Assembly (NCBI GenBank): GCA_045596865.1
Contig: JAZODF010000074.1
Span: forward strand, 24,407-88,406
Direction of reading: 5' to 3'
Length of the DNA: 64,000 nucleotides
Origin: Eubacteriales bacterium
Lineage (GTDB): Bacteria; Bacillota; Clostridia; Oscillospirales; CAG-272
Positions 4,238-37,235 of this stretch are shown piece after piece; position 1 is the stretch's first letter, and every line of letters starts with the position of its first letter. The notes below the pieces were generated by a model. That model saw nothing but the letters and a program-made list of their open reading frames with translations. It did not search any database and was not told where the DNA came from. A program made the position numbers and the translations under genes.

Positions 4238-4929
4238 TGACGAATACGACACTTGACGCGCGACTCTCCTGTGCCGCGTCCTTCGTCAGGGTGGGTGCCG
4301 TCCTTGCCGATATCGGCACCGACCACGGCTACCTGCCCATTTTTCTTCTCTCGCGTGGCGTGATCGAGCGCGCCGTGCTCTGTGACGTCAACTCGGGTCC
4401 GCTTGCCTCCGCGCGTGAAAACGTCGGTGCGGCGGGGCTCCTCTCGCGGTGTGAATTCGTCCTCACCGACGGCGCCGCGGCACTTGACGGGCGGGGGATT
4501 ACCGATTACACCGTCTGCGGCATGGGTGGCGAGCTTATCGCCGACATCATCGACCGCGCGCCGCACCTGTTCGACCCTGCCGTGCGACTTATCCTCCAGC
4601 CGATGACCCGTGTCGAGCGCCTGCGCCCCTACCTCTGTTCCCACGGCTTTGAAATCCTTGAGGAGAGGTATTCCTTTGCCGACGGCAAGTATTACGTCTG
4701 CCTCCTCGTGGCCTTTGGTGGCACCCCGTGTGAAATTTCCGACGAGCTTGCCTACCTCGGCGCCGACCTTGTGCACGAGGGCGACATGGAAGAGTACCTC
4801 GGGTATCTTGAAGCACGCAAAAGGAGCCTTGAGCGCGCATATAACGGAAAGCTGAAATCCGGCGAAAAGGATAGGAAAATCGAACACATCCTCCGACTTA
4901 TCGATAAAAGAATAGAAAAACATACATAA
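4237..4929 (+). CDS. trmK: tRNA (adenine22-N1)-methyltransferase TrmK family
   Basis: 230 aa. The N-terminus ...RLSCAASFVRVGAVLADIGTDHGYLPIFLL matches the TrmK/YqfN SAM-binding start. The start overlaps the previous stop (TAATG). A Nif3 gene follows, as in the Bacillus yqfN-yqfO pair. Confidence 0.8.
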   Translation: MTNTTLDARLSCAASFVRVGAVLADIGTDHGYLPIFLLSRGVIERAVLCDVNSGPLASARENVGAAGLLSRCEFVLTDGAAALDGRGITDYTVCGMGGELIADIIDRAPHLFDPAVRLILQPMTRVERLRPYLCSHGFEILEERYSFADGKYYVCLLVAFGGTPCEISDELAYLGADLVHEGDMEEYLGYLEARKRSLERAYNGKLKSGEKDRKIEHILRLIDKRIEKHT

Positions 4930-4954
4930 AGAAAAGCAAAGAAAGGTTTACAAA

Positions 4955-5716
4955 ATGACAGTCAGGGAAATATACGACGCATTAAACGAGCGCATACCCG
5001 AAGCACTTCGTGAGCCTTGGGACAACGACGGCCTTATGTGCGCGCCCGACGATACCATTGAGGTGCGCCGCGCACTCGTCGCCTTGGACGTTACCGAGGA
5101 CATCGTTGACTACGCCATATCAAACGATATTGATCTCATCCTCTCCCATCACCCCCTCATCTTCAAGCCCGTCGCCTCTATTCACGAGGACGATCACGTC
5201 GCACGCAAGCTGATAAAGCTCATTAAAAACGACGTCGCGGTCATCTCCTTCCACACCCGCGCCGACAAGGTCGAGGGCGGGGTAAACGACCTCCTCTGCG
5301 ACATCCTCAGCATCCGTAACGCCACCCCCTTCGGCGACGGCGACCTCGGCAGGATCGGCGACCTCGACGAGGAGCTGAATATGGAGGATTTCTCCTACCT
5401 CTTAAAGGGTCTGCTTGATTGCGACGGCGTGAAGGTCGCCGACGCTTGCATCCCCGTTGGCAGGGTTGCGGTTGTCGGTGGCGACGGTAAAAGCTACATC
5501 CCCGCCGCCCTCGCTGCGGGCGCCGACACCTTCGTGTCGGGCAGAATCGGCTACAACACGATGATCGAGGCATCCGAAATGGGCATCAACCTCCTCGAGG
5601 CGGGCCACTTCTTCACCGAGCACCCCGTCACCTCCTTCTTCCAGTCGCTCCTTCACCGACTCGACCGTGATATGTATATTGAGATCAGGCAATCGAACAA
5701 CATCAGATTGATATAA
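4955..5716 (+). CDS. Nif3-like dinuclear metal center protein (YqfO/GTP cyclohydrolase 1 type 2 homolog family)
   Basis: 253 aa. Motifs are ALDVTEDIVDYAISNDIDLILSHHPLIF, ISFHTRADK and LLEAGHFFTEHP, which are typical Nif3 metal-ligand His blocks. Confidence 0.85.
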   Translation: MTVREIYDALNERIPEALREPWDNDGLMCAPDDTIEVRRALVALDVTEDIVDYAISNDIDLILSHHPLIFKPVASIHEDDHVARKLIKLIKNDVAVISFHTRADKVEGGVNDLLCDILSIRNATPFGDGDLGRIGDLDEELNMEDFSYLLKGLLDCDGVKVADACIPVGRVAVVGGDGKSYIPAALAAGADTFVSGRIGYNTMIEASEMGINLLEAGHFFTEHPVTSFFQSLLHRLDRDMYIEIRQSNNIRLI

Positions 5717-5738
5717 CCTCCTACCCGTGTAAAATTAA

Positions 5739-5773
5739 ACCCGTCCTCTCATTAAATTGAGGACGGGTTTTTC
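5739..5773 (+). terminator. Intrinsic terminator after the nif3-like gene
   Basis: Stem ACCCGTCCTC (5739-5748) / GAGGACGGGT (5759-5768), 10-nt loop, then TTTTT. Confidence 0.7.
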
Positions 5774-5862
5774 TTCTGTTAATGTAAATAACTGTTTGCG
5801 TTTATAAATTGACGGGCGTCGCTCGTGGGGCCCTTGTTGCCACGGTGATTTTGCAATATTTG

Positions 5863-7563
5863 TTACCGCTTGGTGAATTTAAGGGTGGTCTCGAGCTCGA
5901 AGCAAGCGCCGTGACCCTTCGAGATAACCGCAATCGCGTAGTCGATTTTGTTCTCGTCGTTCATCACGGGGATGAGGCTCGTGCTCATCGGCCGCGAGGA
6001 CTCGATTTCGGTGTGGACCCCGTGCGTCAGGCGCTCGATACGGCTCTCGCTCGGCTGATGGACGTCGGCGCGCGCGGTCAGTATGCGCGACTCCCACGCC
6101 ATTTTGCGGCTCGCCGTTACACGGTCGGTTATGGTGACGGCATCCTCCGCGATGGCAATCCTTCTTTGCCACTCGTACCCGTCCTTTCCCTCGCGGACAC
6201 GGATGCTGAACGCGATTATTCCGCTCGGGTCAAACTCGGTGATCTCGCTCGTCATATCTATACCGCCATCGGGGTAGCTGAACTCGGGGGTGAACAGTAT
6301 GCTGTGCGTTCTCGGATCGCGTAAATGCCAATACAGCTCCCAGCGGTCGTATGAGCAACAGCCGCCGTCAACGATTATCGGCTCGTTGCCGTAGAATAGC
6401 AGTAGCTCGGGTCGCGCGCCGTGGTGATGTCCGCCGCGATAATCCATCGCATCTGCATACAGGGTGATATCCCCGCACCGCAAAACCGCGGTCTTGCTCT
6501 CTCTGAAATGCCTGCTCGTCCGCTCGCGTGGAAAATCGATCTGTAACAGCCGCTCGGCGCGTGCAAGGTCGGCGAGTGCATCCATCCCGTAGGAATCCGA
6601 GATTCTTGCCGTCCGTCCCGCGGGCGTTGCAAAATTATATAGCCACTCGTATTGCTTGACGATACTCTCGCGTAGTCCCGCCGGTGGCTCCATGCCGTTG
6701 TTTTTGAGGAGCAGATACGCCTCGAGGTAAAGCCGCACGATAAAGTGCCCGTAGGACGGGCTGTCCTCGTCGGATGCCCCGTCGGGGTATATGGCACGCA
6801 TGTTCATCTTAAGCGTGTCGGTGCCGATGGCGAGCAGCTCCTCGGCGCGTGGCAGCTCGGGGAACATTACCGCCGCCATTATGAGCACGACGCCAATCTG
6901 CAGGACGTGATTTTGTGCGAGGCCGCGCCTGATCCTGTCCTCCGCTTCCTCGTAAAGGTGTGAGGTGTGGGTGGCGAGCAGGGCGTAAAGGTATTCCCAC
7001 TCCTCGCGGCTGAACGGCGCATCCTCCAGCATAAACAGGCCGTGGAGCAGGGACATCGTGCGCCACGCCACCTGCATATCCCGCCACACCATATCGGTCT
7101 GCAGGTAATGCACCTCGGGGTCGAAGGGCTGATACGGGTGCGCGTCTGCCCATCCGCGAACTATCTCGAGCCAACGGCGCGCATACCGCTCCTCCCCCGT
7201 CCGTAAAAATGCGTGTGCGACGGGTATCGTCATATACAGCCTCTGCGGCCATATCTGCCACTCGTATTTCTTCCTGAAGCCCGTTCCCTCCGTGTAGGCG
7301 AAGGACCGCTCCCAATTGTACTCGCCGCCGTTTTGAAACTCGTGGAAAAGCTCGCCCGACATCGTCAGCTCGAGCATGCGCTCGCCTGAATTTGACCCAA
7401 ACCGATCGAGCATCAGCTGGGACGCACCCCCATCAAGGACGAGGTAGGGAAAGATATCCTCGCCCATCAGCTCCTCTCGCGGATATGCGTAGTGTGTGAC
7501 CCGCCTCTGCCCGAAAATCTCGGTGGCGTAGGGCTTCGTGTACTCGGTGCCGTGCCTCTTCAT
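5863..7563 (-). CDS. Heparinase II/III-like (alginate-lyase-fold) protein, no signal peptide
   Basis: 566 aa with AAGGAGG RBS. The N-terminal alpha/alpha-toroid region reads ...WADAHPYQPFDPEVHYLQTDMVWRDMQVAWRTMSLLHG. The C-terminal heparinase II/III-type block reads ...YADAMDYRGGHHHGARPELLLFYGNEPIIVDGG. Confidence 0.7.
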   Translation of the reverse strand: MKRHGTEYTKPYATEIFGQRRVTHYAYPREELMGEDIFPYLVLDGGASQLMLDRFGSNSGERMLELTMSGELFHEFQNGGEYNWERSFAYTEGTGFRKKYEWQIWPQRLYMTIPVAHAFLRTGEERYARRWLEIVRGWADAHPYQPFDPEVHYLQTDMVWRDMQVAWRTMSLLHGLFMLEDAPFSREEWEYLYALLATHTSHLYEEAEDRIRRGLAQNHVLQIGVVLIMAAVMFPELPRAEELLAIGTDTLKMNMRAIYPDGASDEDSPSYGHFIVRLYLEAYLLLKNNGMEPPAGLRESIVKQYEWLYNFATPAGRTARISDSYGMDALADLARAERLLQIDFPRERTSRHFRESKTAVLRCGDITLYADAMDYRGGHHHGARPELLLFYGNEPIIVDGGCCSYDRWELYWHLRDPRTHSILFTPEFSYPDGGIDMTSEITEFDPSGIIAFSIRVREGKDGYEWQRRIAIAEDAVTITDRVTASRKMAWESRILTARADVHQPSESRIERLTHGVHTEIESSRPMSTSLIPVMNDENKIDYAIAVISKGHGACFELETTLKFTKR

Positions 7564-24375: not shown

Positions 24376-27309
24376 ATGCTACAGGACAGACAGATTGACA
24401 GAATGATAATGAAGATGAAGCGGCTCCGCGAAATGTACGAGGCACATCTCGTCACCGAGGTTATTAACCCCGCCGTCACCGTTGACAAGGGCGGCGAAAA
24501 ATTCCCCATCGAGGAGGGTATGCTCTGGGGCACGGACTTCGGCACCGCGGTCTTCTCCTTTACCGTCGAGGGGATAGACGAGGGCGAGAAATACTACCTC
24601 AACGTTGAAACGGGCTCGCCCGAGCACCTCGTTTCGGTAAACGGCAGAAAGGTCGGTATGCTCGACTACATTAACCCCGCCGACGCCTTCGAGCCACCCG
24701 CAAGAACGCACCGCTATATGCTCCTCGACGGGCTGAAAAACGGCGACCTCGTCGAGCTCGAGGCGTACTATTCCCACGTCCTGCCGGGTATTCATCCGTA
24801 TGACAAGCCGTTCACCTTCTCCTACTCCTCCTTGAAGCCCGACCGCCCCTTCGAGTACATCCACCTCGTGCGGCTGAACGGCCCGCTCTACGTCCTGAAT
24901 GAGAAAATGACCCTCCTTGAGCAGCTCTACGCCTCCGAGGAGGACGGCTATGCCCGTGCTCACATCGAGAAAACCTATATCGAGCTGTTCAAGCTACTCC
25001 CCGCCGACGAGGTCATCCCCTCGGACGAGGTGCTCCTTGCCGCCGCGGACCTTATCGACAGGCTCTTTGAGGGCGGTCGCAAGCTCCCCTACGTCGGCAT
25101 CATCGGTCACTCGCACCTCGATACCGCCTGGCTCTGGACGGTTGACGAAACCCGCCGCAAGCTGATGCGCACCGTCGCAAACGCGGTCGAAATGCTCCGC
25201 CGCCACCCCGAATACAAGTTCTTTATGTCCACCGTTCTCTACCTCAAATGGATCGAGGAGGCCGACCCCGTCCTCTTCGCCGAGGTCGAGAAGTATATAA
25301 AAGAGGGAAGATTCGAGGTCAACGGCGCAACCTGGGTAGAGTGTGACGGCAACCTCACGGGCTCGGAGGCTTTCTGCCGTCAATTCATCCGCGGCAAGCG
25401 CTATCTGCGCGAGAAATTCGGCTACGAATCGAACACCTTCTGGCTGCCCGACACCTTCGGCTATTCCGCCGCCCTGCCGCAGATCATGAAGAAAAGCGGC
25501 GTCGATTACTTCCTTACCACCAAGCTCTCCTGGAACGATATGAACCGCTTCCCCTACGAGACCTTCACCTGGCGCGGCATAGACGGCAGCACCGTCCCCG
25601 TCCACTTTACCACCATCGCGACCTGGGCGGACGAGGAATCGATAACCAAGCGCCTCTCTGACATCCACAACAAGCGCGACTGCGACAGCGTCTTGATGGC
25701 ATACGGCTTCGGTGACGGCGGTGGCGGCCCCTCCGAGGAGATGGTCAGCCGTGCGATCTACACCGAAAAGCACGCCACCCGCGCCGTGGTCGAGCACACC
25801 ACCGTCTCCGACTTTATGGAGAGGATAAGCTCTAAAGAGCTTCCCGAGTATTTCGGCGAGCTGTATCTCGAGCTGCACCGCGGCACCTATACCACGAATC
25901 ACGATATGAAAATGTATAACCGCCGCCTTGAGGAGGCGCTCCACGATGCCGAGCTCATCTCGGTTATGAAGGGCGATAAGGGCGCGAAGGCAATGACCGA
26001 CGCCCTCTACGATACCCTGATGCTCAACCAGTTCCACGATATCCTCCCCGGCACCTGCATCGCCGAGGCAACCGACGTCGCCCTCGAGGAGCAGAGGGCC
26101 GCCCTCGCCGAGGCGCGCGCCTACACCTCGGGCAAGGGTAAGCGCGGCAAGCGCGCCTACTTCAACACCCTCCCGCACGCCCGCACCGAGATCCTCCCGA
26201 CCGATAAGGGACAGGAGTACGACGCCCTCGACGGCAGGCGCACCGTCGCCCCCTACAAATTCGACGGCATCGGCTACGGCAGGCGACAGAAGCCCACGGG
26301 CAATATCCCCTTCACGGTCGACGGCGACAGGGTGATCACCCCCTTCGTCGAGGCAACCTTTACCGAAGGTAAAATCTCCTCGCTCGTCTACCGCGGCCGC
26401 GAGCTGGCGAAGGGCGGCCTCCACCTTATCAAGGCGTACGAGGACGTCCCCCTAATCTACGATAACTGGGACGTCGACGCGGATTACAGAATGAAGGAAA
26501 AGCCCGTCCGCTTCCTCGGTCGCGAGGTCGTATCGGTCGGCGAATACCTGCTCGTTTTGCGTATCACCCACGCCATTGCCGATAATTCCACCCTCGTCAC
26601 CGACGTAAAATTCCGCTTCGACAGCCCCGAGATAGAGTTTGAAAACCGCCTCGTCGCGGGCGACCTTCATACCCTCATCCGTGCGGAGCACGATACCACC
26701 CTCTTCACCCAGTCCTACCGCTGTGAAACACAGTTTGGCAACCTCGTTCGCAACACCTATCCGAGGGATAAGAGCGACCTCGCCAAATTCGAGGTATGCG
26801 CCCACAAGTGGACCGACCTTTCGGAGGCGGGCATTGGCATCTCGATGCTCTCCGACGTCAAATACGGCGTGTCCTGTCAGGGCGGCCGCCTTGGTATCAC
26901 CCTGCACAAATCGGGTACCGCTCCCGACGCGCGCGGCGACCTTGGCGAGCATTTCTTCCGCTACGCCATCTATCCTCACGAGGGCGGCCTCTCGATGGAC
27001 ACCGTCCGCCGCGGATACGATTTCAACTACCGCCCCATCCGCACGAGCCACGGCGACCTCGCGGCACCCTTCACCCTCACGGGTGACGGCAGCGTAATCC
27101 TCGAAACCGTCAAGCACGGCGAGGACGACGGCATCATCCTCCGCCTCTACGAGGCGCTCGGTGCAACCTCGACGGTCACCCTCGGTTCGGGCGGCGCCGA
27201 GATCATCCTCACCAACATCCTCGAGGACGAGGTGGAATCGCTCGGCAGGGATGAAATATCCCTAACCCTCTCGCCGTTTGAGATAAAGACGGTGAAGATA
27301 AAAGGCTAA
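24376..27309 (+). CDS. GH38 alpha-mannosidase (cytoplasmic type)
   Basis: Start set at the ATG at 24376 (GGAGG 6 nt upstream). It is 977 aa. The GH38 catalytic N-domain block is VGIIGHSHLDTAWLWTVDETRRK. Later blocks are WLPDTFGYSAALPQI and YLELHRGTYTT. Confidence 0.88.
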   Translation: MLQDRQIDRMIMKMKRLREMYEAHLVTEVINPAVTVDKGGEKFPIEEGMLWGTDFGTAVFSFTVEGIDEGEKYYLNVETGSPEHLVSVNGRKVGMLDYINPADAFEPPARTHRYMLLDGLKNGDLVELEAYYSHVLPGIHPYDKPFTFSYSSLKPDRPFEYIHLVRLNGPLYVLNEKMTLLEQLYASEEDGYARAHIEKTYIELFKLLPADEVIPSDEVLLAAADLIDRLFEGGRKLPYVGIIGHSHLDTAWLWTVDETRRKLMRTVANAVEMLRRHPEYKFFMSTVLYLKWIEEADPVLFAEVEKYIKEGRFEVNGATWVECDGNLTGSEAFCRQFIRGKRYLREKFGYESNTFWLPDTFGYSAALPQIMKKSGVDYFLTTKLSWNDMNRFPYETFTWRGIDGSTVPVHFTTIATWADEESITKRLSDIHNKRDCDSVLMAYGFGDGGGGPSEEMVSRAIYTEKHATRAVVEHTTVSDFMERISSKELPEYFGELYLELHRGTYTTNHDMKMYNRRLEEALHDAELISVMKGDKGAKAMTDALYDTLMLNQFHDILPGTCIAEATDVALEEQRAALAEARAYTSGKGKRGKRAYFNTLPHARTEILPTDKGQEYDALDGRRTVAPYKFDGIGYGRRQKPTGNIPFTVDGDRVITPFVEATFTEGKISSLVYRGRELAKGGLHLIKAYEDVPLIYDNWDVDADYRMKEKPVRFLGREVVSVGEYLLVLRITHAIADNSTLVTDVKFRFDSPEIEFENRLVAGDLHTLIRAEHDTTLFTQSYRCETQFGNLVRNTYPRDKSDLAKFEVCAHKWTDLSEAGIGISMLSDVKYGVSCQGGRLGITLHKSGTAPDARGDLGEHFFRYAIYPHEGGLSMDTVRRGYDFNYRPIRTSHGDLAAPFTLTGDGSVILETVKHGEDDGIILRLYEALGATSTVTLGSGGAEIILTNILEDEVESLGRDEISLTLSPFEIKTVKIKG

Positions 27310-30454: not shown

Positions 30455-33400
30455 ATGAGAAAGCACTTAATGAAAATTGTCGTTTTCGCTCTGGTCCTCT
30501 CCATTCTCCTTATGTGCGGTATCGCGGTCAGCGCGGCACAGGAGGGCGAGTATGAGAGAAACCTCAGCAAGAGCGTTACGGCAACCGTAGGAGACAGGAC
30601 GCTCCAGGTTATCACCGACCCCGTGGTGTATTGGGAGGTCGCCTCGGGCGGATCTCTCGCTGACTATGAGATCAGATACGCTACCGTCGACGATAACGCG
30701 ACCGTCATCTACACCCCCTGGTACCCCGACACCACAACGGGTAGAGAGGGCTCCTTCGTCGAATACGTTTGCAAGGCAAACAGCGACGGCGCATACGTCG
30801 TCACCGAGGTCGTGACCGCCGAGGTCGGCAAGACCTACATCCCCGTTGGCGGCTTCGTTATCTCGGTCCCCACGGCACAGGATAACGGCTTTGCATCCGT
30901 TGGTGACACCGTGACCCTCGGCGGTGAGAAGATCGCCATCCCAACCCGCGCCGTCGAGTCTGACGAGCGCCGTATGGTCATCGACTACACCAACACCAAC
31001 CGCTCCGGCCCGATGGTCGTTTACTACGATTACCAGTTTGGTGAGAAGACGGGCACCAACCCCTTCGGCACCGAGGTCATCGTTCAGTACGATTTCGATG
31101 AAAAGACCTTTGAGGTCATTGATTTCCGTCCCTTCGGCATCGGCGACGATTCCGGCTCTACCATCCCCGATAACGGCTTCGTCCTCTCGGCATACGGACC
31201 CGGCTACCGTCAGCTCCTCGCCGCAGATGAGATCTTCGCAAAGGGCGACAAGGTGAGAATGGTCGGCTTCGACTACATCCGCTTCGGCGGCACGGTCGTC
31301 GGCGACTACGATTACGTCAACCCCACCAAGGAGGGCAACCCCGGCTCGATGGAGACCCCGACCGAGGAGTTCCCCGCATACCGCGGTGAAAACCAGACGA
31401 TGATCTACAAGGACGGCTGGAATTACAAGGATGCCGCGGGCACGGGCACCAACGTCTACGGATTTGAGGCGGCGGTCGATGCAAACGGCGTCGTCGTTGA
31501 GCTCGGCGTCAACGTATCGAAGATTCCCGAGGGCGGCTACGTCATCTCGGGTCACGGCAAGGGCCGCGACTTCATCCGTGCAAACGTCGTTCTCGGCGCT
31601 ACCGTCGTTCTTAACGAGAGCAATAAGACCTTTGCCGTCTCCACCACTCTTAACAGCTATTACGAAAACCTCGTCACCGACGTTGAGGCGGTTATCAGTG
31701 CCGCCGAAACGAGAATGAAGCAGCTCTATGACGTCGATACCGAAAGGCTCACCAAGGATATCGCCGACGTCAGGGTCGAGCTCCTCGCCCTCAAGGAGGT
31801 AAAGGAGGATATCGAGGTCGCACTCGAGGATCCGAACCTCACAGAGGAGGGAAGGGTCAGCCTTCTTATGAGCTACAATAACAGCCAGCTGAAGATCGAG
31901 AAGCTCCGCCAGCAGATCCTCGTCTCCTCCGCGGAGAGCAAGGCCGTGTCCGCAAGAGCGGTATGGCACAGACCCATCGAGGTCTCCTACGCCGACATCG
32001 AGACCAACGTCAAGATGTATAAGGAGATCGGCATCAACCTCATCTTCGTTGAAACGCTCTACAACGGCTACTCCGCCTTCAAGAGCGAGATTCCCGAGTT
32101 CCCCTATCACAAGAACCTCGCCGCCTCCTATGTGAGCGATGATGGCGAGACCTACGACGATTACCTCTCCGCGTTCGTCGCACTCTGCAAGGAATACGGC
32201 ATCGAGGTACACTCCTGGGTGGAGAACTTCTACGTCGGTATCGACCCCACCGCGGCGGTCGTTACCATGCACCCCGATTGGGTACAGTACAACGATGACG
32301 GCACCTACCTCCAGCGCAACGAGGGCGGCCTCTACATATTCATCGACCCCGCTAACAAGGAGGTGCAGGACACCCTCATCGCCTACTACAACGACCTCTT
32401 CGATAAGAACCCGGACGTCGCGGGTCTTAACCTCGACTACATCCGTTACCCCGTCTCCTCGAAGGATGAGGACACCGGATTTACCATCGAATCGATGAAG
32501 GGCTTCTACGAGGGCGTGATGGGCAAGACCTTCACCGCCAACCAGTCCTCCTCGAGAGAAAAGATGTATAACAAGTTCATCCAGCTCTTCGACAAGAACT
32601 ACCTCCTCGGCGGACAGGACGAGGCCGACGCCAACTACAAAAAGTGGGTTGAATACCGCATGGGCCTTATCACCGGCTACGTCAAGCGCATCAAGACGGA
32701 GATCAAGGACGAGCGCGGCATCATCCTCTCCACCTCCGTATTCGCCTCCCTTCAGGAGTCCACGAATATGAAGAAGCAGGATTGGCAGACCTGGTACCTC
32801 AACGGCTGGATCGATCTTGCTACCCCTATGGCGTACTACACAAACTCTGCAGACGTCTTAAAGAGGGTTAACGATATGATCCTCATGGGCGGTAACAACT
32901 GCCTCTACTACACCGGTATCGCCTCCTCGTACAGCGGCCTTCCCGCATGGCAGAACAAGGAGCATATCGAGGCGTCCTATCAGGCGGGCGCAAACGGCTA
33001 CGTCGTATTCTGCTCGACTCAGATCATCGGACACGAGGACGTACAGAACGCGCTTAAGAGCGGCGTTAACAGCAAGTGGGGCACCCTTCCTCACGCACCC
33101 ATCGCAGACCTGCTTGCCGCAACGCGCGAGGACCTCGCATCCAAGGCCGACAGGATCTACATCCCCGCGGGCGGCATGACCGCGGAGCAGAAGGCGGCAC
33201 TCACCGCGGCTATCACCGAGCTTGAGGGAATGAGCGCCGACACCGCCGTCGACATCTACAAGATAATGAAGAAGGTCGAGACTCTTGCAAAGAGCGGTGT
33301 GAAGGATATGGCGAAGGGCTACTCCCGCCAGAGAATCACCGAGCAGCTGAACGAGCTTGCCGACATCCTCGACGCACGCATCTCGATGGAGCTCATCGCC

Positions 33401-33718
33401 GACGGCGAATGGGATCCCGAACAGAACAGAACCCGTCCCACCGTTACCGAAAACGGCGTGGTATTCCCCTCCGACCACAAGTGCGAGCATAAGTGTGACA
33501 GGTGCGGCAAGTGCCTCGACACCGAGTGCACCGAGACCGTCTGCGCATCCAAGTGCCAGGGTCACAACGCACCCACCCCGCCCGCAGGCGACAAGACCGA
33601 GCCCGATAAGGGCAACTACACCGGCATCATCGTCGGCGCGGTCATCGTCGTGCTCGTCCTTATCGGCACGGGCGTTGCAATGTTCTTCATCGTGAAGAAG
33701 AAGGGTCAGGCGGGCTAA
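30455..33718 (+). CDS. Large surface protein: signal peptide, unknown N-terminal beta-rich repeats, coiled coil, GHL10 domain, Cys-rich module, C-terminal TM anchor
   Basis: 1087 aa with AGGAGG RBS. The signal peptide is MRKHLMKIVVFALVLSILLMCGIAVSAAQ. The GHL10 blocks are INLIFVETLYNGYSAF, IEVHSWVENFYVG and GLNLDYIRYP. The Cys module is HKCEHKCDRCGKCLDTECTETVCASKCQGH (33476-33565). The TM anchor is GIIVGAVIVVLVLIGTGVAMFFIV followed by KKKG. Confidence 0.8.
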   Translation: MRKHLMKIVVFALVLSILLMCGIAVSAAQEGEYERNLSKSVTATVGDRTLQVITDPVVYWEVASGGSLADYEIRYATVDDNATVIYTPWYPDTTTGREGSFVEYVCKANSDGAYVVTEVVTAEVGKTYIPVGGFVISVPTAQDNGFASVGDTVTLGGEKIAIPTRAVESDERRMVIDYTNTNRSGPMVVYYDYQFGEKTGTNPFGTEVIVQYDFDEKTFEVIDFRPFGIGDDSGSTIPDNGFVLSAYGPGYRQLLAADEIFAKGDKVRMVGFDYIRFGGTVVGDYDYVNPTKEGNPGSMETPTEEFPAYRGENQTMIYKDGWNYKDAAGTGTNVYGFEAAVDANGVVVELGVNVSKIPEGGYVISGHGKGRDFIRANVVLGATVVLNESNKTFAVSTTLNSYYENLVTDVEAVISAAETRMKQLYDVDTERLTKDIADVRVELLALKEVKEDIEVALEDPNLTEEGRVSLLMSYNNSQLKIEKLRQQILVSSAESKAVSARAVWHRPIEVSYADIETNVKMYKEIGINLIFVETLYNGYSAFKSEIPEFPYHKNLAASYVSDDGETYDDYLSAFVALCKEYGIEVHSWVENFYVGIDPTAAVVTMHPDWVQYNDDGTYLQRNEGGLYIFIDPANKEVQDTLIAYYNDLFDKNPDVAGLNLDYIRYPVSSKDEDTGFTIESMKGFYEGVMGKTFTANQSSSREKMYNKFIQLFDKNYLLGGQDEADANYKKWVEYRMGLITGYVKRIKTEIKDERGIILSTSVFASLQESTNMKKQDWQTWYLNGWIDLATPMAYYTNSADVLKRVNDMILMGGNNCLYYTGIASSYSGLPAWQNKEHIEASYQAGANGYVVFCSTQIIGHEDVQNALKSGVNSKWGTLPHAPIADLLAATREDLASKADRIYIPAGGMTAEQKAALTAAITELEGMSADTAVDIYKIMKKVETLAKSGVKDMAKGYSRQRITEQLNELADILDARISMELIADGEWDPEQNRTRPTVTENGVVFPSDHKCEHKCDRCGKCLDTECTETVCASKCQGHNAPTPPAGDKTEPDKGNYTGIIVGAVIVVLVLIGTGVAMFFIVKKKGQAG

Positions 33719-33998
33719 CCCGTTAAAGGGTGATGTGCACCTAAGTCCCACCCCGTGTTAAATTATCCGCGGCTAATGCGCGATTATCTACACCTTGTTT
33801 TACACCGTTGTTAACGGCAAAATGCAAACCTATTGTTTACAAAAAAGCACCCACCCGCCCGCATAACGGGCGGATGGGGACCCCCGAAATGCGTATCCCG
33901 CTCCTCCACTCCTCCTAGTGCACGCATTTCAGTCAAAACGGTTTTTTGATGTTAGACATCTTAAAAATAAAATAAATTTTAAATCAGGAGGCACACAA

Positions 33999-36900
33999 AT
34001 GAAAATGTCAAAAATTTTGACACTGATCGCAGTGGTAATGGTACTCGTTCTTGCCTTTACTGCCTGCGGTCCCAAGGACCAGCCCAATGCGGAGCACAAG
34101 TGCGAGAGCGCGTGTGAGACCTGCGGCAAGTGTACCGATGCATCTTGCACCGAGGACGCCTGCAAGGGCAAGTGCGAGGGTCATGACCCCGCACCCGTTG
34201 AGACAACGCCCTCTATCAGCGTTGTTCCCCCCGCGATCGAGATCCACGCGGGCGACGAGATCGACCTCATGTTCGGTGTTACCGTAACCGACGAGGGCGA
34301 CGATGCTCCCACCCTCATTATTGAGGACGACGACGGCTTCGACGCCGAGGTCGTTGGAAGCTACACCATCACCTACAAGGCACAGAACAAGTACGGCAAG
34401 ACCGCTACCGCGACCCGTACCGTAACCGTCCTTGAGGCACTCTCCGCTCTTTCTCTCGAGGTCAGAGCTAACAGACTCGGCGAGAATAAGTGGGCAGGCA
34501 ACATCCTCTCCTTCAAGAACAACGAGTTCGTCACCATCACCGCTAATTACGTTTCCGACGTGGCAATCAGCGGCGTATTCTACAACGCATCCGAGTCCGA
34601 GCTCACCGTGAGCATCACGGGTCAGTACGGCGTTGCCGCTATCATCGACGCTAACGGCTTCGTTCTCGAGGGCCGCGACGGCGCGAACGGCAAGCTCGTT
34701 AATCAGGCTAACCCCGACAGAACCGCAAGCTCGGTTTCCACCATTCAGGTTGGTGATGAGTCCGTTTCCGTAGTAAGCGCATTTGCAAAGAACCTCGTGG
34801 TTCCCGCAGGCGGCTATGCTATCGTTGTTCAGAACGGCTACTGCGGCACCACCGTTGATACCGACGGCCGCGGCTTCATGAACTACAACGTTATTTACCA
34901 GTACGGCAACGTTGTTCGCCTCGTATGGGCTGACAGCGCCGAGGTACTCACCCCCTACGTTGACCAGGCTCCCGTAATCACCGGCCACGGCAACAAGGTT
35001 CTCGCTAATTACACCGACGCCGAGTTCGTTCTCGCCGACGCTATCGCAGCGGGCCTCACCGTAACCGACGATAACGGTACCTTCGATCCCTCCGATGACG
35101 TTGTTCTCACCGTTTCGGTTACCGACAACGGCGGCTTCGACATCAACACCGTCGGCTCCTACACCGTAACCATCACCGCAACCGACGGCACCCTTACCAC
35201 CACCGTTACCCGCGTTGTTGACGTTGTTGACAACCTCGTTAGCGTTATGGTAAACGATAAGGCGTTCAGCCTTCTTCCCGACAAGATCGCAATCGACGAG
35301 GACCTCACCAAGCTCGGCTCCTACCTCTTCGTCGTTTACACTCCCGAGTACACCGGCACTCTCAACTGGACCAACGGCTGGGGTGAGGCGTTCATCCTCA
35401 ACCAGTACGGCCAGGTTATCCGTATCTACGACGGCGCTAACGGCAAGTACTACGATGCTGACAACACCGCGGGTGTTGTTGACGCTACCAAGTGCACCGC
35501 GGCAGGATACCTCACCGAGGCATTCGCCTCCCGTCAGGCAGGCGAGTATATGATCGTTGCTCCCAACGGCACCGCCGGCAACCTCTCCCGTGCGTTCCTT
35601 CTCGGTAACCGTACCATCGGCGCACAGCTTACCATCCCCGGCATCACCTTCCCGAATGCTCCTCACACCTGCGAGAGCAAGTGTGACAAGTGCGGCAAGT
35701 GCCTTGATGCAGAGTGCACCGAGTCCGTCTGCGCCGAGAAGTGCGAGGGCCACGCTCACGAGTGTGAGAGCGTATGTGCAACCTGTGGCAAGTGCCAGGA
35801 TGCAGAGTGCACCGAGGCCGTTTGCGCTGAGAAGTGCGCGTGCCACGAGTGCGAGAGCGTATGCGAGCATTGCGGCGGCTGTACCGATGCTGAGTGCACT
35901 CAGGCTGCCTGCGCAACCAAGTGCCCCGGCCACGTTGGCTCCATGTTCGTTACCATCGGCTCGAAGAAGTACGAGGCGCTGAGCGGCAAGTGGGCTATCA
36001 ACGAGACCATCACCACCTCCACCGCGGCTAACAAGGCGGTTTGGGTATTCACCAAGGATTACACCGGTGAGTTCTCCACCAACGGCTACGGCGCGGCAGT
36101 TATCCTTGACCAGTACGGCAGAGTTCTCAGAATTTACGACGGTGCTAACGCAGGTTATACCGACGCAGAGTCCGGCGTTAACAACAAGGACCACGGCGTA
36201 ACAACAGGCAATTATGCTACTCTCGCATGGGAGAGCCTTCAGGCGGGCGAGTACCTCGTTGTACTTCCCAACGGTGGCTCCACCGATAACGAGGCACGCA
36301 AGCTCGGTCTTGACTGCCGTTGGCTCATCGGCCAGAAGATGAATCTTACAGGCGTTGAGTTTGCATCTACCACCATGACCATCACGATCGGCTCCAAGAC
36401 CTACACCGCTGAGCTTGGCAAGTGGGCTGTTAACGAGACCATCACCACTAATACCGCGGCTAACAAGGCTATCTGGGTATTCACCAAGGATTACACCGGT
36501 GACTTCACCACCAACGGCTACGGCGTAGCAGTTGTTCTTGATCAGTTCGGCAGAGTTGTAAGAGTTTACGACGGCGCTAACGCAGGCTACACCGACAAGG
36601 ATTCGGGCGTTAACAACAAGGACCACGGCGTAACAACAGGCAATTATGCTACCCTCGCATGGGAAAGCCTTCAGGCAGGCGAGACTCTCGTAGTGCTTCC
36701 TAACGGCGGCACCGAGGGCAACGTAGCCCGTCAGGTTGGCCTTGATTGCCGTTTCCTCATCGGTCAGAAGATGTCCGTAACCGGCATCAAGTTCCTCGAG
36801 ACCGAGATGACCATCCAGATCGGCGCGAAGACCTACACCGCCGAGCTTGGCAAGTGGGCAATCAACGAGACTATCACCACCTCCACCGCGGCAAGCAAGG

Positions 36901-37235
36901 CTATCTGGGTATTCACCAAGGATTACTCCGGTGAGTTCTCCACCAACGGCTACGGCTGTGCAGTTATCCTTGACGCTGAGGGTAAGGTTCTCAGAATTTA
37001 CGACGGCGCAAACGCAGGCTATACCGATAAGGATTCGGGCGTTAACAACAAGGACCACGGCGTAACCACAGACAACTACGCTACCCTCGCATGGGAAAGC
37101 CTCCAGGAGGGCGAGACTCTCGTCGTTCTTCCTAACGGCGGCTCTACCGATAACGCAGCACGCAAGGTCGGCCTTGATTGTCGTTGGCTCATCGGCCAGA
37201 AGATGACCATCACCAACGTTGACTTCGCAGGCTAA
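33999..37235 (+). CDS. Large lipoprotein: four Cys-rich modules, two Ig-like (DUF5011-type) domains, five copies of an unknown ~140-aa domain
   Basis: Track ORF trimmed to the ATG at 33999 (AGGAGG 8 nt upstream). The lipobox-like signal is MKMSKILTLIAVVMVLVLAFTAC. Cys modules lie at 34095-34184 and 35664-35933. The Ig-like blocks are ...VVGSYTITYKAQNKYGKTATATRTVTV and ...TVGSYTVTITATDG. Three 432-bp tandem repeats lie at the 3' end. Confidence 0.8.
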   Translation: MKMSKILTLIAVVMVLVLAFTACGPKDQPNAEHKCESACETCGKCTDASCTEDACKGKCEGHDPAPVETTPSISVVPPAIEIHAGDEIDLMFGVTVTDEGDDAPTLIIEDDDGFDAEVVGSYTITYKAQNKYGKTATATRTVTVLEALSALSLEVRANRLGENKWAGNILSFKNNEFVTITANYVSDVAISGVFYNASESELTVSITGQYGVAAIIDANGFVLEGRDGANGKLVNQANPDRTASSVSTIQVGDESVSVVSAFAKNLVVPAGGYAIVVQNGYCGTTVDTDGRGFMNYNVIYQYGNVVRLVWADSAEVLTPYVDQAPVITGHGNKVLANYTDAEFVLADAIAAGLTVTDDNGTFDPSDDVVLTVSVTDNGGFDINTVGSYTVTITATDGTLTTTVTRVVDVVDNLVSVMVNDKAFSLLPDKIAIDEDLTKLGSYLFVVYTPEYTGTLNWTNGWGEAFILNQYGQVIRIYDGANGKYYDADNTAGVVDATKCTAAGYLTEAFASRQAGEYMIVAPNGTAGNLSRAFLLGNRTIGAQLTIPGITFPNAPHTCESKCDKCGKCLDAECTESVCAEKCEGHAHECESVCATCGKCQDAECTEAVCAEKCACHECESVCEHCGGCTDAECTQAACATKCPGHVGSMFVTIGSKKYEALSGKWAINETITTSTAANKAVWVFTKDYTGEFSTNGYGAAVILDQYGRVLRIYDGANAGYTDAESGVNNKDHGVTTGNYATLAWESLQAGEYLVVLPNGGSTDNEARKLGLDCRWLIGQKMNLTGVEFASTTMTITIGSKTYTAELGKWAVNETITTNTAANKAIWVFTKDYTGDFTTNGYGVAVVLDQFGRVVRVYDGANAGYTDKDSGVNNKDHGVTTGNYATLAWESLQAGETLVVLPNGGTEGNVARQVGLDCRFLIGQKMSVTGIKFLETEMTIQIGAKTYTAELGKWAINETITTSTAASKAIWVFTKDYSGEFSTNGYGCAVILDAEGKVLRIYDGANAGYTDKDSGVNNKDHGVTTDNYATLAWESLQEGETLVVLPNGGSTDNAARKVGLDCRWLIGQKMTITNVDFAG
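35943..37232 (+). repeat. Three in-frame 432-bp (144-aa) tandem repeats inside the lipoprotein gene
   Basis: Units start at 35943 (MFVTIGSKKYEAL..), 36375 (MTITIGSKTYTAEL..) and 36807 (MTIQIGAKTYTAEL..). Long identical stretches include WVFTKDYTG.F.TNGYG.AV.LD..G.V.R.YDGANAGYTD..SGVNNKDHGVTT.NYATLAWESLQ.GE.LVVLPNGG. Confidence 0.92.

Follow-up and report, generated by a model that had tools for sequence, protein, structure and literature searches.

A 30-residue Cys7His2 module of surface proteins from uncultured gut Clostridia, a probable metal-stapled stalk unit

The stretch of DNA analysed here (64,000 nucleotides, called the window; positions 24,407 to 88,406 of contig JAZODF010000074.1, from an Eubacteriales bacterium of the CAG-272 lineage) carries two adjacent genes for surface proteins that share a short Cys/His-rich module, considered below as a candidate stalk unit. 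The first gene (30455..33718, + strand) encodes a GHL10 surface enzyme of 1087 amino acids (aa), having a cleavable N-terminal signal peptide and a GHL10 domain (glycoside-hydrolase-like) at residues 516-799. Its C-terminal part is ordered as one Cys7His2 module, a 17-residue Pro-rich linker, a transmembrane (TM) anchor and a KKKGQAG tail, the module ending 17 residues ahead of the hydrophobic anchor (YTGIIVGAVIVVLVLIGTGVAMFFIV, read from the sequence at 33617..33694, +). The second gene (33999..37235, +) encodes a lipoprotein of 1078 aa, with its likely start at ATG 33999 behind AGGAGG at 33986-33991; the longest open reading frame starts at GTG 33918, and the orthologue P0194 is 1078 aa long and begins with MKMSK. 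This lipoprotein consists, in order, of a lipobox, one module, Ig-like domains, beta-rich repeat domains, three modules and three 144-aa repeats. The lipobox Cys codon (LAFTA-C, 34065..34067, +) is the predicted lipid attachment site, and the three tandem repeats after the triple module (35943..37232, +) form a 'head' set apart by the modules from the rest of the protein.

The module follows the consensus H-x-C-x3-C-x2-C-G-K-C-x4-C-x4-C-x2-K-C-x-G-H, with seven Cys and two His in ~30 residues. An earlier, sequence-only reading of this DNA had listed five copies with identical Cys spacing, and these are exact in the translation of 33476-33565, 34095-34184 and 35664-35933 on the + strand. Copy 1 (HKCEHKCDRCGKCLDTECTETVCASKCQGH, 33476..33565, +) comprises residues 1008-1037 of the GHL10 protein, in a juxtamembrane position, and scores 53 bits against the module profile; copy 2 (HKCESACETCGKCTDASCTEDACKGKCEGH, 34095..34184, +) lies in the lipoprotein, 9 residues after the lipobox Cys. 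Copies 3, 4 and 5 (35664..35753, 35757..35846 and 35844..35933, all +) are the first, middle and last members of the tandem triple of the lipoprotein, which had been placed correctly, with one detail to amend: the middle and last copies overlap by one His codon (35844-35846), copy 4 ending in KCAC-H, a Cys29 variant, whose last His doubles as His1 of copy 5. A scan of the 64-kb window in six frames with the pattern C-x3-C-x2-C-x2-C-x4-C-x4-C-x3-C returned these five sites and no site beyond them, the chance expectation being essentially zero at ~1-2% Cys. The five-copy alignment is gapless over 30 residues, with 14/30 columns invariant (H1, C3, E4, C7, C10, G11, C13, D15, C18, T19, C23, K26, C27 and H30), and the window copies score 48-54 bits each against the five-copy profile, corresponding to E ~1e-8 to 1e-9 at library size. 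In DNA, the copies share a mean identity of ~83%, with TGC/TGT and CAC/CAT alternating at the ligand codons, and in a set of 100 distinct module DNAs, taken from related loci, every ligand position shows both synonymous codons. It is thus the protein that is conserved, and the repetition of the module is not the trace of a recent DNA duplication.

Building a hidden Markov model from the five copies had been suggested with the earlier reading, and such a profile, searched against 1.84 billion proteins, recovered a protein family, with 334 cluster representatives at E<=1e-3, of which 162 pass E<=1e-10 and 39 pass E<=1e-30. The carriers are 106-7394 residues long, with up to 15 module copies per protein, and those with a name are annotated as 'hypothetical protein' or 'pectate lyase [Clostridia bacterium]'. 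As seen in 346 unique full-length copies, H1, C3, C7, C10, C13, C18, C23, C27 and H30 are each ~100% conserved, followed by K26 (99%), G29 (95%), G11 and K12 (78% each), and position 15 is D in 83% and N in a further 16%. All 27 credible loci in species-representative genomes, which were surveyed with a narrow pattern from the five-copy alignment and hence at low recall, belong to metagenome-assembled genomes of uncultured Clostridia, Eubacteriales or Oscillospiraceae from animal and human guts; a match in Deltaproteobacteria (L028) was judged spurious, as it covers residues 5-18 alone, without the module core. As far as sampled, the module is confined to uncultured gut Clostridia. At one contig end (L011), open frames with six and eight module cores lie on opposite strands (4344-6455, -, and 5266-6456, +), which is probably an inverted-repeat assembly artefact and possibly a pair of convergent module-rich genes.

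Regarding known domains, the module had been described as not belonging to any named one, and this description stands. No family of the curated libraries Pfam-A (2025 copy) and NCBIfam 20.0 exceeded its gathering score, the criterion applied, on the modules, and newer precomputed Pfam lists of 120 carriers contain partner domains only, none of them on the module. PDB sequence searches with a single sequence and with a 100-sequence profile gave nothing significant for the module, the sole echo (E = 0.27) being the seven-residue CPECGK knuckle known from C2H2 zinc fingers; structural comparison of the single-module and triple-module models with the PDB by Foldseek gave no match. In the full-text literature, nothing on this module was found with motif strings or under cysteine-rich surface modules of Clostridia. 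A heme-c motif was also considered and rejected, as the module lacks CxxCH, having just C-x-G-H or C-x-C-H. The module is a real, uncurated and lineage-restricted family.

The position of the module was analysed in the best 150 carriers, 117 of which (~78%) have a lipobox. In these, the first module starts at a median distance of 11 residues past the lipid-bearing Cys, a distance that is 15 residues or less in 78 of them. Beyond this type, there are carriers with an N-terminal signal anchor and a few with the module just before a C-terminal TM helix (P0096, L029). Thus, the membrane-proximal placement noticed in the window often applies across the family. The gaps between modules are bimodal, being either 0-8 residues, in arrays of up to eight, or 131-200 residues, where the module alternates with a globular domain. 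The partner domains belong to varied exo-enzymes and binding modules, namely pectate lyases with CBM77, CBM6/35, GDSL esterases, Exo_endo_phos and other nucleases, metallophosphatase/5'-nucleotidase, NAGPA, GHL10, GH3, CotH, DUF4886, Ig-like domains and Flg_new repeats; no redox domain and no metal-uptake domain of the ZnuA/AdcA type is found among them. The signal peptides are of the Sec/lipoprotein (signal peptidase II) type, with no twin-arginine translocation (Tat) consensus among the 150 carriers, three of which have RR inside ordinary MRRK/MKRR n-regions. The module is extracytoplasmic, as had been predicted.

The comparison of orthologues points to the role of the module. Lipoprotein orthologues (51-95% identity) that share the architecture and the synteny retain two or three modules in the middle of the protein; in their N-terminal stalk, the number is 0, 1, 2, 3, 5 or 6. 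The zero-module stalks, from the lipobox to the first Ig-like domain, consist of a Thr/Pro-rich linker (ETTPPANNQTTPP...) or an array of a different, His2Cys2 unit of 24 residues. In the GHL10 enzyme, a close relative has the module and the TM anchor, and more distant ones have an acidic/Pro-rich linker and then an amphipathic tail (KLNFFQRIWQAILNFFRKLFGGKKK); the GHL10 neighbours at orthologous loci have one module copy or none. Similarly, the NAGPA protein encoded downstream of the lipoprotein (37481-38884) has a PT linker in this window, and elsewhere two to five His2Cys2 units take its place. As the module is swappable with linkers and free to vary in number, it has the hallmark of a spacer and recalls the periscope class of surface proteins, in which small tandem domains (SHIRT, G5-E, Rib) lie between anchor and head and the copy number sets the projection distance (PMC8201768, PMC9704523). 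Two features of that class are found here, namely tandem repeats between the anchor and the functional domains (at the median distance and in the arrays given above) and a repeat number that varies among close relatives, 0-6 at one position, with the rest of the protein kept. Periscope repeats differ in being beta-rich domains of 70-130 residues without metal clusters, in LPXTG proteins of cocci, and their length variation is driven by highly identical DNA repeats, whereas the module copies are only ~83% identical in DNA. Thr/Pro-rich linkers of Gram-positive surface enzymes occupy the same positions in orthologues of both proteins and of the NAGPA neighbour, yet they are disordered and metal-free, whereas the module is conserved and, in the models, has a confidently predicted fold. 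Judged from the sequences, a part on which catalysis or a specific partnership depends would not be expected to show this pattern.

The His2Cys2 unit (~24 residues, EHxHxFVxGKCxCGxxDPxY, in arrays of 2-5) occurs at the N-termini of P0253, P0242 and P0224 and in the C-terminal parts of L030 6894-8348 and L032 9557-11110, filling stalk positions that the 7-Cys module or a PT linker occupies in this genome; PDB sequences contain no relative of it. The amphipathic tail is conserved at the C-terminus of several surface enzymes of the locus, after Pro/Thr/acidic linkers, being LSPFARFFVNIWEAIVNFFKNLFKKK here (38797-38881 of the window, NAGPA C-terminus) and KLNFFQRIWQAILNFFRKLFGGKKK in relatives (C-termini of L031 2783-5935 and of L032 585-3779, 3891-5927 and 9557-11110). 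It stands, in GHL10 orthologues, where the TM anchor would be, matches no Pfam or NCBIfam model and looks like an uncurated C-terminal anchoring or sorting signal.

Considering the ligands, the two His of the module are as invariant as the Cys. The Gly29-His30 ending, K-C-x-G-H, is replaced by K-C-x-C in 16% of modules, with the ligand count staying at nine. At junctions where abutting modules share a single His, such as that of copies 4 and 5, Cys29 is found in the upstream module in 8/8 cases, against a background of 18%, and therefore each module seems to need its own terminal ligand. Moreover, modules with Cys18 changed to Ser lack His1 as well in 5/5 cases (background 26/544), the other Cys being retained, and a 26-residue form of the module has one Cys fewer, leaving eight ligands, with one such copy having His in the place of Cys23. 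The C7-P-x-C10-G segment, which matches the zinc/rubredoxin knuckle consensus, tolerates C-x4-C in its loop. AlphaFold2 predicts the single module with a mean per-residue confidence (pLDDT) of 86.5 and almost no regular secondary structure, and the triple with a pLDDT of 81 and the same fold pattern in each copy; DSSP assigns isolated bridges and one short turn per module in both models, the bridges of the single module, at residues 6 and 13, flanking the knuckle. The marks of a generic structural zinc site, namely invariant Cys/His ligands, Cys/His interchange and a knuckle, are all found, and the minimal forms have eight ligands. The sequence-only reading had offered a metal-binding or pairing module, and its metal half is kept as the best reading, because of the invariant His, the swap of His30 to Cys29 and the CPxCG-type knuckle; the pairing half is not supported, as discussed below. 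Since export is by Sec and not Tat, any cofactor would be acquired outside the cell, which favours a free ion such as Zn2+ over an iron-sulfur (Fe-S) cluster.

The existence of the family, its distribution and position, its interchange with linkers and its ligand-swap patterns are direct observations. On this basis, the module is probably a variable-length, metal-stapled stalk or spacer of Sec-exported surface proteins, with zinc as the probable metal. Single or in arrays, and placed after the lipid anchor, between globular domains or ahead of the C-terminal membrane anchor, the modules would hold catalytic and binding domains off the membrane, and the copy number would set the stalk length. 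The nine Cys/His ligands would bind metal ions after export, probably two or three Zn2+ per module, and such stapling would give a compact, protease-resistant bead without disulfide chemistry in the anoxic gut. Some points weigh against this reading. Metal binding, the identity and number of the metals, rigidity and protease resistance are all things that we infer; the ligand-swap and co-loss cases are few (8 and 5), some of them possibly evolutionarily related; and the eight-Cys variants have an even Cys count, compatible with disulfides by counting. In addition, the predicted template modelling score (pTM) of the triple-module model is only 0.40, so the rigidity of the array is unsupported by the model and the modules may be beads on flexible joints, and a spacer role is compatible with an added function, such as metal buffering or binding.

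One alternative, judged unlikely here, keeps the metal and changes the site: each module would hold a polynuclear metal-thiolate cluster with bridging Cys, for example a metallothionein-like M3(Cys7His2), and not paired ordinary zinc fingers. The metallothionein beta-domain (M3Cys9) and the bacterial SmtA (Zn4Cys9His2) bind metals with some nine thiolate/imidazole ligands within ~30 residues, in folds of little secondary structure, and His can serve as a terminal ligand in sites of this type. The cluster fits the module because the nine-ligand count is conserved and because His1 and Cys18 are lost jointly with the other Cys kept, which would correspond to one metal, with two terminal ligands, dropped from a shared cluster. 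The unusual feature of the module, nine ligands in 30 residues, leaves room for a cluster-type site. If this were true, arrays of up to 15 modules would be the first extracellular bacterial stalk of the cluster type, on a strict anaerobe, and Fe or Fe-S loading with redox activity would be possible in the sulfidic, iron-rich gut contents. Metallothioneins themselves are small cytosolic metal buffers, whereas the module sits inside large secreted enzymes, and no sequence similarity between them was detected.

A spacer knotted by three or four intramolecular disulfides, as in EGF or knottin folds, would play the same stalk role without metal, and it is judged unlikely as well. Its attractions are the very high Cys density, the fold without secondary structure, the even Cys number in 16% of modules and the working DsbA/VKOR homologues that some Clostridia encode (PMC12453122). 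The odd Cys count, raised earlier as an argument against a disulfide knot, is only partly valid, because it applies to the 70% of modules with seven Cys and fails for the 16% with eight. Against the knot stand the two His, ~100% conserved, with His30 exchanged specifically for Cys29, which is sensible only for a ligand, and the joint loss of Cys18 and His1. Furthermore, the hosts are gut anaerobes, whose habitat is presumably reducing, and in the comparable case of the Thomasclavelia ramosa IgA protease 0/24 Cys were seen in a disulfide, with up to eight zinc sites found or predicted (PMC12237041).

That protease also provides what appears, by analogy, to be the closest functional precedent of the module. 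In this M64 enzyme, ZBD1 and ZBD2 (= CTD2 and CTD4, 'metal-associated periscope domains') lie between the protease and the cell anchor and are predicted to form zinc-linked rods; catalysis does not depend on them, small-angle X-ray scattering shows an extended rod, they are proposed to project the enzyme from the cell, and they had neither a structural homologue nor a family when described (PMC12237041; PMC12415215). Like the module, they are Cys/His-rich, extracellular and part of a surface protein of a gut Firmicute, in which they separate the catalytic part from the anchor, and they carry predicted structural zinc in place of disulfides, as proposed for the module. The differences are in construction: ZBDs are three-stranded beta-sheet subdomains of ~35-55 residues, with His2Cys2 or Cys3His ligands and one site per subdomain interface, whereas the module has nine ligands (Cys7His2) in 30 residues, no sheets in the models and a different motif. 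In addition, the module carriers are for the most part lipoproteins and not substrates of sortase. PDB sequences and Foldseek gave no match to the module, but the ZBDs are known as predicted models only and are perhaps absent from the libraries searched. The module thus appears not to belong to the ZBD family, and the His2Cys2 24-aa unit of the orthologues is closer than the 7-Cys module to the ZBD ligand set.

Improbable, further, is a surface metal store or buffer, a metallothionein-like sponge capturing or detoxifying Zn, Cu or Cd, to which the stalk position would be secondary. The density of nine ligands in 30 residues is that of the metallothionein beta-domain, and a protein may have up to 15 copies, but a sponge is at odds with 0-6 copies among orthologues and Thr/Pro linkers in its position in close relatives. 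Metal-uptake partner domains of the ZnuA/AdcA type are lacking, and the modules always lie at anchor or domain boundaries.

Ligation of the ferredoxin type, to which the CxxCxxC core had been likened, is not borne out by spacing or context, and an Fe-S cluster is considered very unlikely. It would have C7-x2-C10-x2-C13 and a distal Cys bind a [4Fe-4S]-type cluster in a redox-active surface array. The core is common to the module and the Fer4-clan ferredoxin motif, Fe(II) and sulfide are plentiful in the gut, and one carrier matches Fer4_2 below threshold (E=0.084; 13.3 bits, cut-off 24.5). However, no Fer4 model reaches its threshold on any module, the spacing is C-x2-C-x2-C-x4-C-[TA], lacking the C-x3-C-P that completes CxxCxxCxxxCP, and the conserved His1 and His30 as well as the 26-aa form without one Cys are a misfit for a cubane site. 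Sec/lipoprotein signals, without twin-arginine, leave no cytoplasmic cluster insertion, and the partners are hydrolases and binding modules, none of them a redox partner.

The hetero-pairing proposed earlier fares just as poorly; in it, the GHL10 enzyme and the lipoprotein would bind each other through their juxtamembrane copies, perhaps via a common metal, and would thereby be co-localised. In its favour, a membrane-proximal copy exists in both proteins, and adjacent module-bearing genes are frequent in other genomes (L003, L004, L008, L021), which is explained by the clustering of surface-protein genes in glycan-utilisation loci. Against it, the module is shared by hundreds of proteins with no other relation (334 protein clusters or more, with unrelated partners), and its number in the lipoprotein does not co-vary with that in the GHL10 neighbour, as in L032, where the lipoprotein has six modules and both GHL10 neighbours none, and in L029, where the GHL10 protein keeps its module and the lipoprotein N-terminus has a Thr/Pro linker. 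The disulfide knot, the metal sponge, the Fe-S cluster and the hetero-pairing are each less likely than the zinc-stapled stalk.

The neighbourhood of both genes is a glycan-utilisation locus, comprising in order a GH38 alpha-mannosidase, DUF4127, a small GHL10 protein, the GHL10 giant, the lipoprotein and the NAGPA phosphodiester glycosidase, followed by another lipoprotein (38961-40547), two ABC (ATP-binding cassette) permeases, an FAD (flavin adenine dinucleotide) oxidoreductase and an MsmX-type ATPase, and this gene order is kept in related metagenomic contigs. The second lipoprotein (528 aa, lipobox LVLTS-C, Gly-rich linker) lies upstream of the two permeases in all orthologous loci and is a candidate for the solute-binding protein of the locus; it had no match among Pfam and NCBIfam models. 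In a gut metatranscriptome, contigs at 95-99% identity cover both module-bearing genes, with DNA carry-over in the library possible. Those over the GHL10 gene stop ahead of a G+C-rich hairpin at 33846-33882 (gcccgcataacgggcgg region) and those over the lipoprotein gene start beyond it, which suggests that the GHL10 and lipoprotein genes form separate transcripts or that a processing site lies between them. As for the 144-aa repeats, a tie between this domain and the module was rejected, as it occurs in just 7/150 representative carriers. One contig of a DNA run (X1) skips 432 bp (36323-36756 of the window), exactly one repeat unit, and this indicates that the copy number of the C-terminal repeats varies at strain level, with which orthologue lengths of 918-972 against 1056-1105 aa fit.

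Taken as a whole, uncultured gut Clostridia appear to build the stalks of many glycan- and nucleic-acid-degrading surface enzymes from tiny Cys/His modules, and these stalk regions are annotated as nothing or as low complexity because no database recognises such modules. The only published precedents of this emerging class of Cys/His stalks are two predicted domains of one IgA protease (2025), and the 7-Cys/2-His unit stands apart within it by an unusual ligand density; a family model of this unit would better annotate hundreds of proteins. If the metal binding is true, the module would offer protein engineering a compact (30-aa), disulfide-free and possibly protease-resistant spacer. It would also represent a new case of extracellular protein stabilisation in anoxic habitats, and the bacteria bearing it would have a sizeable zinc demand at the cell surface.

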